Part shown: positions 8,210 to 13,694 of the stretch, in pieces
Layout of the letters: every line of letters starts with the position of its first letter
Numbering within the stretch: position 1 is the first letter of the stretch
Origin: a virus
Taxonomy: Duplodnaviria > Heunggongvirae > Uroviricota > Caudoviricetes
Reading direction: 5' to 3' (one strand)
DNA: 18,553 nucleotides
Virus record (IMG/VR): IMGVR_UViG_2541047776_000006
Translations under genes and position numbers: made by a program
Notes under the pieces: model-generated
Told to the model about the DNA's origin: nothing
Database searches by the model: none
The model's input: only the letters and a program-made list of their open reading frames with translations

Positions 8210-8505
8210 TTCTGCTCTCTCCACGCGGCAATCATGTTTTTCAGTTCCTGTAGTTTTTTATCCACATTCACACGTGACACATGGTTATTTCTGGAAAGCG
8301 GGATTTCCCGCCTGAATCTGCTAATAAAGATCTCCACGTTCAGCGAACTATGAAATGAATAGCCATCACGAATAAAATACACACGGTCAAACATCAGTTC
8401 TTTTACCGTTACTCTGTTACCGTTCTTATCCAGATAAATAGCGCCGGGGATAATTTTGGGGTGTGCATAACCGCTGGCAGTCAAGCCAGATAAATATGTT
8501 CTCAT
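8206..8505 (-). CDS. Hypothetical protein (99 aa)
   Basis: ORF tightly packed in the minus-strand operon, with ATGA coupling to the primase start. No recognisable motif. Confidence 0.5.
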   Translation of the reverse strand: MRTYLSGLTASGYAHPKIIPGAIYLDKNGNRVTVKELMFDRVYFIRDGYSFHSSLNVEIFISRFRREIPLSRNNHVSRVNVDKKLQELKNMIAAWREQK

Positions 8506-8511
8506 GATTAT

Positions 8512-8832
8512 TTATCCCCGATTTGAATCAGTATTCGCTTTCTTTATGGCATTTAATGCATCTGTGGCATTTTCAATGGTGCACCGTAACGAAATATCAA
8601 ACTGCCCAAGCATTGCCAGTAACAAGCCAATATTCCCCATGTCAATGCGCATAGCCTTTTCGTCATAGTCCTCATTTTCTGACGCATGCCACATCAGGCT
8701 ACCAATTGACGCAACAGCCATTGATATATTGTCAGTAGCCCCATCCGCAGCGGAATAAACCTTTTTAGCAATATCATGCTCACAGTTAAAATGCGGATTA
8801 ATCAGGTACTGGTAATTTGACATATCAGGCAT
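8512..8832 (-). CDS. Hypothetical protein (106 aa)
   Basis: ORF in the same operon, 6 nt upstream of the 99-aa ORF. No recognisable motif. Confidence 0.5.
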   Translation of the reverse strand: MPDMSNYQYLINPHFNCEHDIAKKVYSAADGATDNISMAVASIGSLMWHASENEDYDEKAMRIDMGNIGLLLAMLGQFDISLRCTIENATDALNAIKKANTDSNRG

Positions 8833-9028
8833 GGCACACCCCCTGACGAATACGGGCAGCGAATACCATCACGCAGCCAGCCGGGGATTGCTGGCGTGCT
8901 TCCTGTTCGCTGGTGGCCACGATGTGAATCACGCGCGGTTGTGCCGTGCTCAGGGCGATAAAACGCCAGATGTATTTATTCAGGTTGTGTGAGTCCCGCC
9001 CTTGCGGGTGTATGGTATGATTTAACAT
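8825..9028 (-). CDS. Small protein (67 aa), possibly Icd-like
   Basis: This is the C-terminal part of the 304-aa track ORF, starting at ATG 9028..9026 with GAGGT 5 nt upstream (MLNHTIHPQGRDSHNLNKYIW...). Its stop overlaps the next gene start. The Icd-like resemblance is from memory of P4-family annotations. Confidence 0.35.
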   Translation of the reverse strand: MLNHTIHPQGRDSHNLNKYIWRFIALSTAQPRVIHIVATSEQEARQQSPAGCVMVFAARIRQGVCHA

Positions 9029-9110
9029 AGCTACCTCGATACTATCGTTATCGTTGGTGGTTAGACGCCCTGCATGTGTTGCGAGCACTGCGGGGCGTTG
9101 CTCCTCTAGG

Positions 9111-9152
9111 TGTATTTCACCTTTGCTTTTTAATTTACTCACTGGTGAAATA
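9111..9152. promoter_or_regulatory. Candidate operator: perfect 12-bp inverted repeat GTGTATTTCACC-N18-GGTGAAATACAC in a divergent promoter region
   Basis: Read directly in the intergenic region between the minus-strand operon start (9028) and the plus-strand RHH-like gene (9222). A TATACT -10-like hexamer lies at 9186-9191. Confidence 0.45.
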
Positions 9153-9221
9153 CACTTCAAGCCTTTTTTTATCATTTTTTTTGCGTATACTGACATACAC
9201 CAATTTTTAGGAGATCCAGAA

Positions 9222-9401
9222 ATGGCAACTGGTGCAAAGAACGCAAAATCACAAATGACAACTGTCAGAATCCCACATGAAGTAATGGATGATATTGAGC
9301 AACTTAAAGAACCTGGCGAAAGTACCGCTGGTTTTTTAGTTACTGCCGCAAAAGGCGAGATCAAACGCCGCCAGCGGCGCAAGGCCAAAGAGCAGGAGTA
9401 A
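9222..9401 (+). CDS. Small DNA-binding protein, ribbon-helix-helix-like (candidate island repressor)
   Basis: ATG at 9222 preceded by AGGAG. 59 aa: MATGAKNAKSQMTTVRIPHEVMDDIEQLKEPGESTAGFLVTAAKGEIKRRQRRKAKEQE. The MTTVRIP beta-strand-like N-terminus and basic tail fit RHH proteins. The track shows it as the 3' part of the 9054..9401 ORF. Confidence 0.5.
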   Translation: MATGAKNAKSQMTTVRIPHEVMDDIEQLKEPGESTAGFLVTAAKGEIKRRQRRKAKEQE

Positions 9402-9457
9402 CCATCACCAGCGCCGTGGTGCGGTGAACTGTGGCGCACAGGGTTACAGGTATCTAC

Positions 9458-9637
9458 GATGACTGACAAATCATTAAAGAAATTATCCTCATCCAGGAAA
9501 AAACAACGCAAAAATGCGGTAAACGAACATGAACCGGAGAGATTCGCACCATGTGCGTTTGTCCTTGAGAAGTACCTTAAGGAGTATTCTAGGAAAATAC
9601 GCTCATTGCAGGCATGGCAACGAATCGAGCCAGACTG
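9458..9637 (+). CDS. Small hypothetical basic protein (59 aa)
   Basis: Found by hand; it is under the track's length cutoff. MTDKSLKKLSSSRKKQRKNAVNEHEPERF... Weak RBS, but it sits between the RHH gene and a plus-strand terminator. Confidence 0.25.
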
Positions 9638-9702
9638 ATAGCATTGCCCACTAGCCGACAACCTGGTATTCTGGATATGCTCAAGTTTAGTGTTATGCCA
9701 CT

Positions 9703-9730
9703 GGCGACCGCCCCCGGTCGCCTTTGTTTT
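9703..9730 (+). terminator. Rho-independent terminator (plus strand)
   Basis: GGCGACCG-CCCC-CGGTCGCC, a perfect 8-bp stem, followed by TTTGTTTT. Confidence 0.55.
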
Positions 9731-9748
9731 ATGTGTCATAGCTCCCCC

Positions 9749-9973
9749 CTAGGCTGCCTTACCTGAATTAACGCGGTCACGGCTTTGCACCCAGTCTATA
9801 ACTTCGGAAAGCAACCAGCCTACAGAACGCCCCCCAAGATTACGGCGAGACGGAAAGCCCCCTTTCTTCTCCAGTTCGTAGCGTGTAGTACGGCTGACGC
9901 CTGTTAACTTACGACATTCATCCTCACGAATTACGCGATCTGTTAGTGATTGAAATTGTGTATTTTGATTCAT
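9749..9973 (-). CDS. alpA: AlpA-family transcriptional regulator / excisionase-like protein
   Basis: 74 aa with the characteristic AlpA HTH segment (LTGVSRTTRYELEKKGGFP...GGRSVGWLLSEVIDWV). Confidence 0.8.
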   Translation of the reverse strand: MNQNTQFQSLTDRVIREDECRKLTGVSRTTRYELEKKGGFPSRRNLGGRSVGWLLSEVIDWVQSRDRVNSGKAA

Positions 9974-10076
9974 AAAAACACCCTCGAACGTAACCGAACG
10001 AGGGCATCTTATTTACCATAGCAGTTGGTGCAATATTGGAAAAATAAACTTTATTCTAATTTATCGTTCTCCATGA

Positions 10077-10931
10077 TTAATTTTCATTAGATAACATTTT
10101 TCTTATTTTTTCTAAAGAATCGCTGCGCATTATTTTTTCTAAGAAGGGTTTTACAGTCTGAGCAATAGCAAAGGTGTCCTTTTCACCATCAGGGTACAAA
10201 GATACGGCAAGCACCCCTAATGAAATTTTTCTATCTGTAGACAACTCCCAAGATAATAAGTCAATTAATGGGATTATCTTATAATCAATAATTTTACGTC
10301 GTATGCTTTCCCAACTTCCTGCAATTGGTTTGTCTGGCTCAACAATTGAAAGTTCACTACGCCATTTTGGTAATAGTTTTGTAAACGCTTCAATCAACTC
10401 ATCATCTCTGTTATGTAGTAAGTCAACAGAAACAAGCATATTATCTAATGTATCAGAAAGGAGATTCACTGGTTCACGCATCACAGCCCAAAACATCCCA
10501 TTATCTTCTGATATTAAACTTCCAACCATCTCATTATCTATGATGATTGGTTTATCCTTCCAATATCCTCTTTCCGCAGTCAGTTTATTAATCATTGATA
10601 TATCAAACCTTGTTACAGGTTTAATTCCATCATCATAACTTAGCTCAATTAACTTCGGCTGCACTTTATGGTCATATTCTTTTTGTTTATCACAAAACCA
10701 ATCGTCTTCGTTCAGCTCTCCAAATGGATCCCCGTAATTATTATGCAACGGGTATTCAGCACCAAACATAAAACCATATTCAGGCATCTCAGAATGTTTC
10801 ATTGTTAAATCATCTTGTCGCCAATATAATTGGCGAAATAGATCTTTATCCGACAAGTTTTCTAGGCAATCATATTTGCCTAAATCAAATGACTTTGGTA
10901 AATCTTTTTTACTATTTACTTTTTTCGTCAT
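10077..10931 (-). CDS. Hypothetical acidic protein (284 aa), cargo gene translationally coupled to the integrase
   Basis: Its start overlaps the int stop (ATGA at 10928-10931). Visibly AT-rich, with no motif I recognise. Occupies the int-alpA slot. Confidence 0.7.
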   Translation of the reverse strand: MTKKVNSKKDLPKSFDLGKYDCLENLSDKDLFRQLYWRQDDLTMKHSEMPEYGFMFGAEYPLHNNYGDPFGELNEDDWFCDKQKEYDHKVQPKLIELSYDDGIKPVTRFDISMINKLTAERGYWKDKPIIIDNEMVGSLISEDNGMFWAVMREPVNLLSDTLDNMLVSVDLLHNRDDELIEAFTKLLPKWRSELSIVEPDKPIAGSWESIRRKIIDYKIIPLIDLLSWELSTDRKISLGVLAVSLYPDGEKDTFAIAQTVKPFLEKIMRSDSLEKIRKMLSNEN

Positions 10932-12148
10932 TGTATCCCTCTCAATATCACAATATTTTCATTATATCCCGCAATCATATCAAGACGCTCAACCCATAGA
11001 TTCAGTGCGTCCCGTTTCGCCTGCAAATAGCGTGAATGGTTATAGGTTTTTTGCTGACCTGGCATCTGATGCGCTGTGATGTGCTCCACGATATGCGGAT
11101 CGACACCTAAATCATTCAGCATAGTTGTAAACGTGTGTCGGAAATCATGCAGCGTCCAGTGTTCCTGCTTAAGCCGCTTATGCGCATTTCGTCCATATTG
11201 CGCCACCGTGGTATCTTTTTTCAGTTCGCCGAGTAATAACCCAGTGTGTGCGTTTTGCTCCACCAGCTTCTGAATGAACGGCAAAATGCCATCAGGAATA
11301 GGTCGGAATATTGTTACCTTCGTTTTGCTGTGCTCTTTTGGCACTGTCCACAACATTTCTTTCAGATCCCATTCTTTGATCTCTGAAAGTCTGATCTCTG
11401 CCGTTCTGCACCCGAACACAATTAACAAGCGCATTAACGCACTGTAATAGGGAGCGAACACATCACCATCAATAGCGCGTAGAATTTCTTTTAGTTCGCT
11501 GTTGCTGTGCACTCTCTCGCGGATTTCTGCTCTCTTCCCCACATCAGTAACGATCAAATCGTCCAGGGCGTTGCTAAACGCGTAGCGCCGCCTGCGGCAA
11601 AACTTTAGCGCCTGTTTGCATGTCTGCATGACATGGCCCGCTGCTACTGGTGCTTTTTTTCGTACGCGGTCAAAACATACGATCCACTGCCTTGTATCAC
11701 ACTTATCAAGGGGAATTGCCCCTATATGGCAAATGATGTGCTTATCCATACGCTGCACCAGCTTTATGTAATCTTTGCGGTTATCCTTCGCGTATTCCTC
11801 CAGCCAGTAGTTAATCGCTTCCTTCACCGTAACGGGTTTTAGTGCTTCCTGTACTGTGGCGCACAACTCATACCGAGGGTTTTTACCCTCAGCCAGCCAT
11901 GCCCGGCACTGTGTTCGCTTTTCCCTTGCAGATTTCAGCGACAATTCCGGGTAAGCCCCCAGCTTTAACCGCTCTGCGGCAACCTCACGGCCTCCCGTTC
12001 GGTACCGGAAATACCAGGTTAATTTGCCTCCCTTTGAGTGTTTAATCTCCAGCCCACCCCCGTCGGAGTAAAAACGCTCTTTTTCTGCCTGGACAGCCAC
12101 CAATTTTTTTAACGTTGAATCGCTCAGTTTGTTTAGTGCTTTTCCCAC
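10928..12148 (-). CDS. int: Tyrosine-type site-specific integrase
   Basis: 406 aa with catalytic-domain signatures (GCRTAEIRL, HDFRHTF, C-terminal ...HSRYL). The start is GTG at 12148..12146 with AGAGGA 7 nt upstream. It sits 190 bp from the right att core. Confidence 0.9.
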   Translation of the reverse strand: MGKALNKLSDSTLKKLVAVQAEKERFYSDGGGLEIKHSKGGKLTWYFRYRTGGREVAAERLKLGAYPELSLKSAREKRTQCRAWLAEGKNPRYELCATVQEALKPVTVKEAINYWLEEYAKDNRKDYIKLVQRMDKHIICHIGAIPLDKCDTRQWIVCFDRVRKKAPVAAGHVMQTCKQALKFCRRRRYAFSNALDDLIVTDVGKRAEIRERVHSNSELKEILRAIDGDVFAPYYSALMRLLIVFGCRTAEIRLSEIKEWDLKEMLWTVPKEHSKTKVTIFRPIPDGILPFIQKLVEQNAHTGLLLGELKKDTTVAQYGRNAHKRLKQEHWTLHDFRHTFTTMLNDLGVDPHIVEHITAHQMPGQQKTYNHSRYLQAKRDALNLWVERLDMIAGYNENIVILRGIQ

Positions 12149-12174
12149 TATCAGATCCTCTTTTCAGTCCTCAG

Positions 12175-12250
12175 CCTCAAAAAACTGACCACACAACTGA
12201 CCACACATTTTGTTGAAACTCGGCAAACAACGACGAACAGCAGCAAACAA
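12175..12250. repeat. Sub-terminal imperfect direct repeat, right copy (partner of 2624-2697), immediately upstream of int
   Basis: CCTCAAAAAACTGACCACACAACTGACCACACATTTTGTTGAAA...ACAACGACGAACAG..., roughly four-fifths identical by eye to the left copy. Confidence 0.7.
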
Positions 12251-12335
12251 GAAAGCCAATTAAATTAATTTATATCAAATACATAAACAAACAATCACGA
12301 ACACTCCCGAACTACAAAAAACACTAAATGAGAAA

Positions 12336-12349
12336 ATACGGGTATTTCT
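12336..12349. repeat. Right copy of the 14-bp att core / target-site duplication
   Basis: Exact match to 2551-2564. Confidence 0.7.
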
Positions 12350-12381
12350 CAGCCTTCACAAAGAAGGGCACCCCGAGTCGT
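12336..12381 (-). ncRNA. TPP riboswitch of thiM, 5' portion (P1 5' strand, P2, P3 with thi-box CUGAGA), separated from its 3' portion
   Basis: Minus strand reads CGACUCGGGGUGCCCUUCUUUGUGAAGGCUGAGAAAUACCCGUAU, matching the 5' part of the thiM TPP aptamer with a couple of differences from my recalled K-12 sequence. The native thiM promoter presumably lies in 12382-12470. Confidence 0.7.
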
Positions 12382-12476
12382 TAGGTTGCGATAATAAATC
12401 GCAGAGGAGGATGGTAATGTCCAGCGCACGCGTTGTAAACGGGGAAAAACGGCAGTTTTACAATCGCGTTAATAAA

Positions 12477-12749
12477 TTATTTGATATAAGAATCCAGCAC
12501 CTTCAGAACGACATCCAGATCTTCTTCACGTTTTAGCTCATCCCCCTGGTGAACGATGTGTTCCGTCAGATGACCTTTAATCACTTCCCGCATCAGACCG
12601 TTTACCGCGCCACGGATAGCAGCAATCTGTTGTAAAACTGCAGCGCATTCATGCGGTTCGTCGAGCATTTTCTTGAGCGCCACGACCTGGCCCTGAATCT
12701 TACTGGCACGCGCTTTCAGTTTCTGTTTATCACGAATTGTATGAGACAT
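12477..12749 (-). CDS. rcnR: Ni/Co-responsive transcriptional repressor RcnR
   Basis: 90 aa ([22 protein letters not shown]...), CsoR/RcnR family, located divergently from rcnA. Confidence 0.9.
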
Positions 12750-12797
12750 GGCAACACCTGGTTAACAAGAATATGAAAAATCATAGCACTATTAATC

Positions 12798-12832
12798 TAC
12801 TGGGGGGTAGTATCAGATACTGGGGGGGAGTA
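12798..12832. promoter_or_regulatory. RcnR operator pair (TACT-G6/7-AGTA inverted repeats)
   Basis: TACTGGGGGGTAGTA at 12798-12812 and TACTGGGGGGGAGTA at 12818-12832, in the rcnR-rcnA intergenic region. This matches the known G-tract RcnR sites. Confidence 0.7.
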
Positions 12833-12869
12833 GAATCAGATTGCCGAATTAATACTAAGAATTATTATC

Positions 12870-13694
12870 ATGACCGAATTTACAACACTTCTTCAGCAAG
12901 GAAACGCCTGGTTCTTCATCCCCAGCGCCATCTTACTTGGTGCGCTTCATGGCCTGGAACCGGGGCACTCAAAAACGATGATGGCGGCGTTTATCATCGC
13001 CATCAAAGGCACCATTAAACAGGCGGTGATGCTCGGACTGGCAGCAACTATTTCGCATACCGCAGTGGTCTGGTTAATTGCCTTTGGCGGGATGGTGATC
13101 AGCAAACGCTTTACTGCTCAATCAGCAGAACCGTGGCTCCAGTTGATTTCCGCAGTGATCATTATTAGCACCGCGTTCTGGATGTTCTGGCGTACCTGGC
13201 GCGGCGAACGCAACTGGCTGGAGAATATGCACGAGCATGATCATGAGCATCATCACCACGATCACGAAGATCACCACGGCCATGGACATCATCACCATCA
13301 CGAACATGGCGAGTATCAGGATGCCCATGCACGAGCCCATGCCAATGACATTAAACGACGCTTTGATGGTAGAGAGGTCACCAACTGGCAAATTTTGCTA
13401 TTTGGCTTAACCGGTGGCCTTATCCCCTGCCCGGCAGCAATTACCGTGCTGTTGATTTGCATTCAGTTGAAAGCCCTGACACTGGGCGCAACACTGGTCG
13501 TCAGTTTCAGCATCGGCCTGGCGTTAACGCTTGTCACCGTAGGCGTTGGCGCAGCAATCAGCGTTCAGCAGGTCGCAAAACGCTGGAGCGGATTTAACAC
13601 TCTCGCTAAACGCGCTCCCTATTTTTCCAGTCTGTTGATTGGCTTAGTTGGTGTGTATATGGGCGTACATGGCTTCATGGGCATAATGCGATAA
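12870..13694 (+). CDS. rcnA: Nickel/cobalt efflux transporter RcnA
   Basis: 274-aa membrane protein with a His-rich loop (HEHDHEHHHHDHEDHHGHGHHHHHEH). Confidence 0.9.
   Translation: MTEFTTLLQQGNAWFFIPSAILLGALHGLEPGHSKTMMAAFIIAIKGTIKQAVMLGLAATISHTAVVWLIAFGGMVISKRFTAQSAEPWLQLISAVIIISTAFWMFWRTWRGERNWLENMHEHDHEHHHHDHEDHHGHGHHHHHEHGEYQDAHARAHANDIKRRFDGREVTNWQILLFGLTGGLIPCPAAITVLLICIQLKALTLGATLVVSFSIGLALTLVTVGVGAAISVQQVAKRWSGFNTLAKRAPYFSSLLIGLVGVYMGVHGFMGIMR

Follow-up and report, generated by a model that had tools for sequence, protein, structure and literature searches.

In an 18,553-nucleotide stretch of DNA recorded as a virus in IMG/VR (hereafter the window), the integrase gene (int) of a phage-inducible chromosomal island (PICI) was found to lie directly behind a host promoter. 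The window is a piece of Escherichia coli chromosome, the tested junctions of which are 100% identical to strain Es_ST80_L1_NDM_10_2017, and its minus strand carries, in order, rcnR (12749-12477), a 9.8-kb island (12335-2565), thiM (2469-1681) and thiD (1684-884); rcnR and thiM adjoin in K-12. The junction between rcnR and int is the right attachment site (attR) of an EcCI224-family PICI, and the explanation that we favour, with a probability of roughly 0.65, is that integration captures the thiM promoter for int, independently of thiamine and in addition to a weak int promoter of the island's own. The element and its attachment core have already been published; what is new here is the recognition that the core falls inside the thiamine pyrophosphate (TPP) aptamer of the thiM leader, and that the thiM promoter is thereby captured upstream of int, which adds one more case to a mechanism already described for integrative and conjugative elements (ICEs). 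Should transcription from the thiM promoter indeed reach int, PICIs would, like ICEs, be elements in which a captured host promoter keeps the integrase available while integrated, and a mechanism described in 2026 for tRNA-adjacent ICEs would extend to phage satellites and to an mRNA leader as the target.

The split riboswitch at the island junctions

The 14-bp att core AGAAATACCCGTAT occurs exactly twice in the window, namely at attR (12336-12349, minus strand), where it makes up nucleotides (nt) +56 to +69 of the thiM leader, and at the left attachment site, attL (2551-2564, minus strand), where it is followed by the 3' half of the aptamer and the expression platform (2550 to 2470) and then by thiM. 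The same core was published for EcCI224 (PMC6092414 Table S1; PMC10111431 supplement). Alignment to the empty K-12 site places host DNA through ...GAGAAATACCCGTAT and island DNA beyond it, the attR junction (12352 to 12325, minus strand) reading ...GAGAAATACCCGTATTTTCTCATTTAG... An inverted repeat, TGAGAAA / TTTCTCA, brackets the attR core (to 12329) and likely represents the core-type sites of the integrase (Int). Identity between attL and attR is confined to the 14 bp, the island carries no substitute 5' aptamer half, and the K-12 thiM leader is restored when the host sides of attR and attL are joined in silico. As judged from these alignments, integration interrupts the thiM leader without a replacement sequence, and excision would precisely restore it.

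The host sequence left at attR comprises the first 69 nt of the thiM leader (12336-12404, minus strand), including the P1 5' strand (from 12381), P2, P3 and J3-2, with the aptamer 5' half itself running from 12381 down to 12336; P4/P5, the P1 3' strand and the expression platform are missing from it. By comparison with the E. coli thiM TPP riboswitch (RF00059; PMC5499598), attR thus holds the authentic first 69 nt and attL the remainder. Against a gathering score of 54.3 for RF00059, the attR half reached 20.1 bits (cmscan, 12286-12385) and the attL half 33.4 bits, and Rfam returned no TPP riboswitch at the gathering score anywhere in the window, while the intact K-12 thiM site, taken as a positive control with the identical tool, scored 71.2 bits. 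The PGAP riboswitch annotation is likewise present at empty sites and absent in the carrier genome. On these scores the TPP riboswitch is destroyed and neither half is still a riboswitch, which bears out the description of the aptamer 5' half as orphaned in the initial annotation of this DNA.

A reconstituted or substitute aptamer at either junction was also considered and rejected, permissive cmscan runs having paired island sequence with the missing halves non-canonically and below threshold. Host-side polymorphisms are present within the orphaned half of the leader (12352-12396), namely TATCAT/TATTAT, CAACCA/CAACCT and a P3 loop of TGCG or TTTG, for which both alleles are found among island-bearing E. 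coli, TTTG being the Salmonella state as well. An adaptive promoter change or a decay of the orphan half in carriers was similarly discarded, as the promoter hexamers are invariant and the leader variants are ordinary polymorphism.

Table S1 of Fillol-Salom et al. 2018 (PMC6092414) gives EcCI224 as CP018948.1:1961620-1972242 with core AGAAATACCCGTAT and the site "frmR-thiM", and the supplement of PMC10111431 lists identical attL and attR sequences as "rcnR_thiM.EcCI224". Neither PMC6092414 nor PMC10111431 mentions a riboswitch or a captured promoter, their tables labelling the site intergenic, and a literature search on thiM or a riboswitch as an attachment site found nothing relevant except two PICI supplements.

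RefSeq annotates a hypothetical protein of 89 aa (WP_071780166.1; 2500-2769, plus strand) that spans the attL core on the strand opposite the thiM leader, which is probably a spurious gene call produced by the junction.

Probable transcription from the thiM promoter towards int

The host thiM promoter (12411-12439, minus strand) is made up of a -35 hexamer TTTACA (12439-12434), a 17-bp spacer and a -10 hexamer TACCAT (12416-12411). TTTACA-17-TACCAT was found by the strict promoter scan and scored 10.7 with a position weight matrix (PWM), which puts it in the top 0.005% of positions and in the best-scoring sigma-70-like class over both strands of the whole window. Neither hexamer varies among K-12 and five E. 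coli that carry the island, and the Salmonella equivalent reads TTTACA-17-TATGCT. In the published leader numbering the AUG occupies nt 151-153 (PMC5499598), and counting back from it puts the thiM +1 at about 12404, seven nt past TACCAT, with the co-oriented int start codon 256 nt downstream.

The core is followed by the P' arm, i.e. the int 5' region (12149-12335, minus strand), a T-rich and C-poor segment of 187 bp; the arms of E. coli copies measure 187-188 bp, and those of Salmonella-type relatives mostly fall within 187-222 bp. The ribosome-binding site (RBS) of int, GAGGA (12156-12160, minus strand), lies 7 nt upstream of the GTG at 12148 and is conserved as AAG(A/G)GGA among relatives; the GTG start agrees with RefSeq, and homologues carry GTG or ATG at the equal position. 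The minus-strand order put forward in the initial annotation (promoter, aptamer 5' half, att core, repeat, RBS and int GTG) was confirmed in every part by the alignments and scans.

The sequence shows that Int recombines at the 14-bp core, inside the TPP aptamer at leader nt +56 to +69, and that integration, with an inward-facing int at the edge of an island co-oriented with thiM, leaves the intact promoter and the first 69 nt of the leader upstream of int, which nothing but the 187-bp P' arm separates from the core. In Gram-negative PICIs int is located at the island edge and faces inward (PMC10111431), and the captured layout is automatic because it follows from the integration position and this orientation of int. 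Transcripts from the thiM promoter would probably run on into int and the overlapping DUF6387 gene, adding to the output of the island's weak promoter (about 12294-12267), and a doubled, putative arm-type motif between both promoters and the RBS could allow bound Int to reduce transcription from either of them. Most likely the arrangement is a by-product of the site and orientation used by an integrase clade, and not a thiamine-sensing circuit.

Pattern scans detected no terminator-like sites on either strand in 11900-12900, and the terminator scans were also empty on the minus strand from 12404 to 12148. The earlier remark that no terminator is evident in this stretch therefore holds for canonical terminators from the promoter to int; weak attenuation by two hairpins may nonetheless occur. 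The leader RNA contains 14% C and 25% G, with most 60-nt windows at 3-17% C, and by this composition the thiM-int leader should be a poor Rho substrate. Given the lack of a canonical terminator and a leader poorly suited to Rho, the entry of thiM-promoter transcription into int is physically plausible.

A different outcome, to which we give a low probability, is that there is no coupling at all, thiM transcripts being stopped or attenuated at the junction by a hairpin with a U-rich tail or by Int/IHF, with int expressed from its own promoter only. Only at attR does the retained P2/P3 hairpin (-11.4 kcal/mol) run into GUAUUUUCUC, the native leader having UAUCACCUG at this point; a 7-bp hairpin over the core (TGAGAAA/TTTCTCA, -5.9 kcal/mol) stands upstream of the U-rich AUUUAGUGUUUUUU; and in ICEKp1, too, the int 5' untranslated region (UTR) attenuates host read-through (PMC13023037). 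A candidate own promoter for int, described below, would fit the same outcome. However, the P2/P3 hairpin is long and interrupted, has a basal stem of only 4-5 bp and went unrecognised in the terminator scan, the core-type inverted repeat TTTCTCA suffices to explain the U-rich tail, and the 256-nt leader is no more structured than its shuffles (z = 0.13), a value that also ruled out an unusually stable fold of the leader as a whole. A conserved long-range pairing of the post-core segment (UUUAGUGUUUUUU) with the int start, by which the translation of read-through transcripts might be silenced, was a further candidate structure, which was set aside as chance: its -22 to -25 kcal/mol in E. coli was matched by 3-12% of shuffles, and the pairing is absent in Salmonella relatives.

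The candidate island promoter for int, TTGTTT-16-TAAATT (12267-12294, minus strand), has a PWM score of 7.8 (top 0.04%). Its -35 hexamer and spacing are retained in four other E. coli copies, in which the -10 reads TACAAT, AACAAT or TTAAAT; the strict consensus scan missed the candidate at 12294-12267. On this basis the P' arm probably supplies int with a second, weak promoter. In EcCICFT073, the cloned Pint region was assayed apart from PalpA, and AlpA was without effect on Pint (PMC6092414). The interpretation offered in the initial annotation left out such a promoter, as well as the fact that the layout arises automatically from an inward-facing PICI int.

Several points count against promoter capture as proposed here. 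The read-through is deduced from sequence and not from transcripts, and the thiM +1 comes from published numbering with no mapped 5' end. The P2/P3 hairpin with GUAUUUUCUC, the core hairpin, or Int/IHF bound to attR could attenuate or block read-through. The candidate int promoter is weak, lies in AT-rich DNA that is prone to false positives and is poorly conserved in Salmonella relatives. Lastly, the single orientation of all copies stems from site-specific recombination and provides no independent evidence on selection.

The initial annotation had gone further in suggesting that host thiamine-responsive transcription could read into int, and of this suggestion the read-through stands, being plausible in the absence of a terminator, while the thiamine response falls with the split of the aptamer and the placement of its controls at attL. 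TPP represses thiM by masking its RBS and start codon (nt about 142-153), the consequence of which is Rho termination at thiM codons 20-34 (PMC5499598). All of these control points, together with P4/P5 and the P1 3' strand, are now at attL, 9.8 kb from the int junction: the expression platform, with its anti-Shine-Dalgarno and Shine-Dalgarno (SD) elements, lies at 2470-2550 with none upstream of int, and the attR transcript retains the pyrimidine-sensor arm only, the pyrophosphate-sensor arm P4/P5 being at attL. To our knowledge, TPP does not act on initiation from the thiM promoter. With a sensor divided between the two junctions and all TPP-dependent controls left with thiM at attL, read-through into int should be constitutive with respect to thiamine. 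The fragment is not expected to bind TPP, as had been recognised from the outset, and this undercuts the thiamine link drawn in the same annotation.

A model in which thiamine limitation raises transcription from the thiM promoter and leader into int, so that integrase level and excision track thiamine status, does agree with the co-orientation, the proximity and the lack of a canonical terminator. It must nevertheless contend with a split aptamer, both halves of which are below threshold against 71.2 bits for the intact site, with the removal of RBS/AUG sequestration and the Rho site (codons 20-34) to attL (PMC5499598), with a retained fragment that has a pyrimidine-sensor arm but no expression platform, and with the dependence of the PICI induction step on AlpA, and not on Int alone (PMC6092414). 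We consider this model very improbable, and thiamine status is unlikely to control excision.

How far read-through might extend is suggested by a hairpin, CCCTCG(12-nt loop)CGAGGG followed by TGTTTTT (9971-10004, minus strand), which is located directly before the alpA ATG and holds the alpA SD (GAGGG) inside its 3' arm. It could act as a terminator or as a translational gate between int-DUF6387 and alpA, and because of its terminator-like form, read-through may stop short of alpA, the induction gene. On the upstream side, no terminator-like site was found from the rcnR stop (12477) to the thiM promoter (12404-12477), and from this interval it appears that Ni/Co-responsive rcnR transcription could also enter the thiM leader and int in E. 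coli carriers. As the upstream neighbour in Salmonella is a divergent rcnB, rcnR read-through into int would not be general.

The arrangement resembles the host-promoter capture of tRNA-adjacent ICE integrases. In ICEKp1, ICEEc1 and ICEclc, the integrated int was shown experimentally to be driven by an adjacent tRNA promoter (PMC13023037). The three ICEs and the window have in common an int at the element edge, co-oriented close behind a host promoter with no host terminator between them, and a structured int 5' UTR that could attenuate transcription. They differ in the host unit, which is a tRNA with a displaced terminator in the ICEs and an mRNA leader cut inside a riboswitch in the window, and in the evidence available, co-transcription and a far-end promoter having been demonstrated for the ICEs, whereas for the window both are predictions and the far-end candidates are weak.

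The arms flanking the core bear a pair of sub-terminal repeats. The right repeat (12181-12250, minus strand; 70 nt) is 86% identical to the left repeat in the P arm (2628-2697, minus strand), and each contains one co-oriented copy of a doubled motif, GTGTGGTCAGTT-GTGTGGTCA, at 12186-12206 and 2633-2653 respectively. Measured from centre to centre, the motif is 85.5 bp away from the core in the P arm and 146.5 bp away in the P' (int) arm; GTGTGGTCA occurs four times in the window, always within the two sub-terminal repeats, and the doubled motif is kept in Salmonella relatives as GTG(T/A)GGTCAGTTGTG(T/A)GGTCAG. By analogy, the repeats with their doubled motif are inferred to be putative arm-type Int sites. 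A doubled TGTATTGC was proposed to bind the Int arm domain in the helper-embedded PICIs (HE-PICIs), the only elements for which it was reported (PMC10111431). The HE-PICIs and the window PICI share the absence of a replacement sequence, co-orientation with the interrupted unit such that upstream transcription can enter int-alpA, and a tandem-doubled motif of 12-bp period, present once per attP arm at fixed distances, which are 81 and 132 bp in the former and 85.5 and 146.5 bp in the latter. They differ in the motif itself (TGTATTGC as opposed to GTGTGGTCA) and in the target, a prophage late gene for the HE-PICIs and a host riboswitch leader for the window. Doubled arm motifs may therefore be more general among PICI integrases.

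The integrase of phage P4 is reportedly autoregulated through its arm sites. For CP4-57, an AlpA-dependent expression of intA is cited in PMC6092414. The window element resembles these systems: its integrase belongs to the P4 family and has an Arm-DNA-bind_3 domain, and repeated putative arm-type motifs separate the int RBS from the promoter region. In the PICI EcCICFT073, by contrast, AlpA did not control int.

The left end, the host genes and the distribution of the site

At the far end of the island, thiMD lies 9.8 kb away from its own promoter, with thiM and thiD still intact open reading frames (ORFs). For the attL leader, RNAfold predicts the anti-sequestering ON fold and an accessible SD in transcripts that begin at the core or no more than about 35 nt from it; in transcripts starting 75-135 nt farther upstream, the SD is predicted to be partly re-paired. 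Terminator-like hairpins precede thiM on the thiM strand at 3070-3045 and, as read by eye, at about 2848-2826. From this anatomy the thiMD genes of carriers are predicted to be free of TPP feedback and may be under-expressed. A satellite splits the thiM TPP riboswitch, unrepaired, in about 1.3% of complete E. coli genomes and in some Salmonella, and the thiMD of carriers should lack both its promoter and its vitamin feedback. This host side is arguably more consequential than the capture by int, and it is relevant wherever thiM riboswitch behaviour or thiamine physiology is used across natural isolates.

The left end also bears on the possibility of an ICEKp1-type switch, in which the thiM promoter is the chief source of int transcription in the integrated state and a promoter in the P arm (2565-2770) takes over across attP once the island has excised; in the chromosome, such an outward promoter would transcribe thiMD. 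The thiM promoter indeed outscores anything in the arm (PWM 10.7 vs 7.8 or less), there is experimental precedent in three ICE families (PMC13023037), about 200 bp of the P arm are highly conserved among divergent island copies, and thiM and thiD have stayed intact despite the separation from their promoter. Even so, the strict scan found no outward promoter at the left end (2400-3600), the thiM-facing candidates there are weak with PWM scores of 4.9 or less, and a candidate int promoter already exists inside the P' arm. Such a switch is regarded as doubtful next to capture of the thiM promoter alongside a weak P'-arm promoter.

Among 5426 complete E. coli genomes, 72 contain the rcnR-int junction and 67 the junction on the thiM side. 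When the single integrase sequence was searched against species-representative genomes there was no match, and relatives were recovered via a protein database and contig look-ups. Beyond a cluster at 96% identity, the nearest integrases are 67-74% identical, those named by source coming from Salmonella. All five relatives looked up (P0002-P0006) display rcnB, the thiM-leader 5' half and int in this order with the identical core and co-orientation, so that the same junction geometry is kept in Salmonella relatives at 67-74% Int identity, while relatives at 63%, 59% and 56% identity occupy other sites. Since the thiM core is shared by the 67-74% relatives and the 56-63% relatives are found elsewhere, a distinct integrase subclade targets this segment of the thiM aptamer; CUGAGA, a motif highly conserved among TPP riboswitches, lies within the segment.

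A bolder proposal would be that the integrases of this clade, which share 67-100% identity across E. coli and Salmonella, are specialised to recombine inside the thiM aptamer and that integration acts as a reversible genetic switch with three effects, abolishing TPP feedback on thiMD, placing thiMD under island-derived transcription with an ON-locked leader, and handing the thiM promoter to int; in E. coli, int would possibly also gain Ni/Co-responsive rcnR read-through. We hold both the specialisation and this set of effects to be speculative and rather unlikely. If true, it would be, as far as found, the first described mobile element with a riboswitch aptamer as its attachment site, with consequences for host vitamin metabolism and satellite maintenance.

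The Salmonella islands extend >11 kb beyond int. One of them, at the same att site, contains four tandem C4 antisense RNA genes (RF01695, 68-80 bits; L012 12725-13943) and an isrK RNA, located between alpA and the replication genes; neither RNA had a match at the gathering score in the E. coli window.

A segment of about 90 bp near the left end (2723-2814) has counterparts of 76-90% identity in islands of several hundred other E. coli genomes, among them clone D i14, the namesake strain of the reference PICI EcCIDi14. It contains a 32-nt direct repeat (2783-2814 and 2894-2925). The segment may serve in packaging, as a cos-like site, or be some other conserved element of PICI ends.

The island and its gene content

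The island (2565-12335, minus strand; about 9.8 kb) was assigned to the EcCI224 family by domain matches, RefSeq annotation and BLASTN against EcCI224 (NZ_CP018948.1), to which it is 96.4% identical over int-alpA, 97.2% over the replication region, 98.5% over the right part and 97.6% at the end. It begins with int (10928-12148, minus strand), which starts at GTG and encodes a P4-family tyrosine recombinase of 406 aa with Arm-DNA-bind_3 and Phage_integrase domains, followed by the DUF6387 gene (10077-10931) that overlaps it and by alpA (9749-9973; Pfam and RefSeq). Genes for YlcI, Icd-like and DUF4222 proteins (Pfam and RefSeq) separate alpA from the gene for a D5-type primase (6392-8224; Pfam and RefSeq). 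Directly downstream of the primase gene is a cluster of direct and inverted GGTGAACAG iterons (about 6150-6393), likely the PICI replication origin. The order of int, alpA, and primase with iterons, running in one direction over 9.8 kb, is that of Gram-negative PICIs, the general PICI gene order being one-directional (PMC10111431; PMC6092414). The island has no complete module of phage structural or lysis genes, but only a truncated remnant of a ClpP-like head protease/capsid gene (4287-4900; 81% identical to its EcCI224 counterpart) and, after it at the far end of the gene order, a DUF1441 gene. By its sequence the island is an EcCI224-type PICI, an E. coli phage satellite already catalogued.

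EcCI224 and the window island share the att core AGAAATACCCGTAT, the chromosomal site and the layout of int, alpA, primase and late zone. The window copy differs in lacking most of the ClpP-like protease/major-capsid fusion gene (4287-6130), in place of which a HEPN-domain gene (5288-6001, plus strand), perhaps a defence cargo, stands in the accessory position. Whereas PICI capsid genes are noted as dispensable (PMC10111431), the loss of this one may or may not matter for induction, excision and packaging by a helper phage. The gene organisation of EcCICFT073, set alongside, also matches that of the window island.

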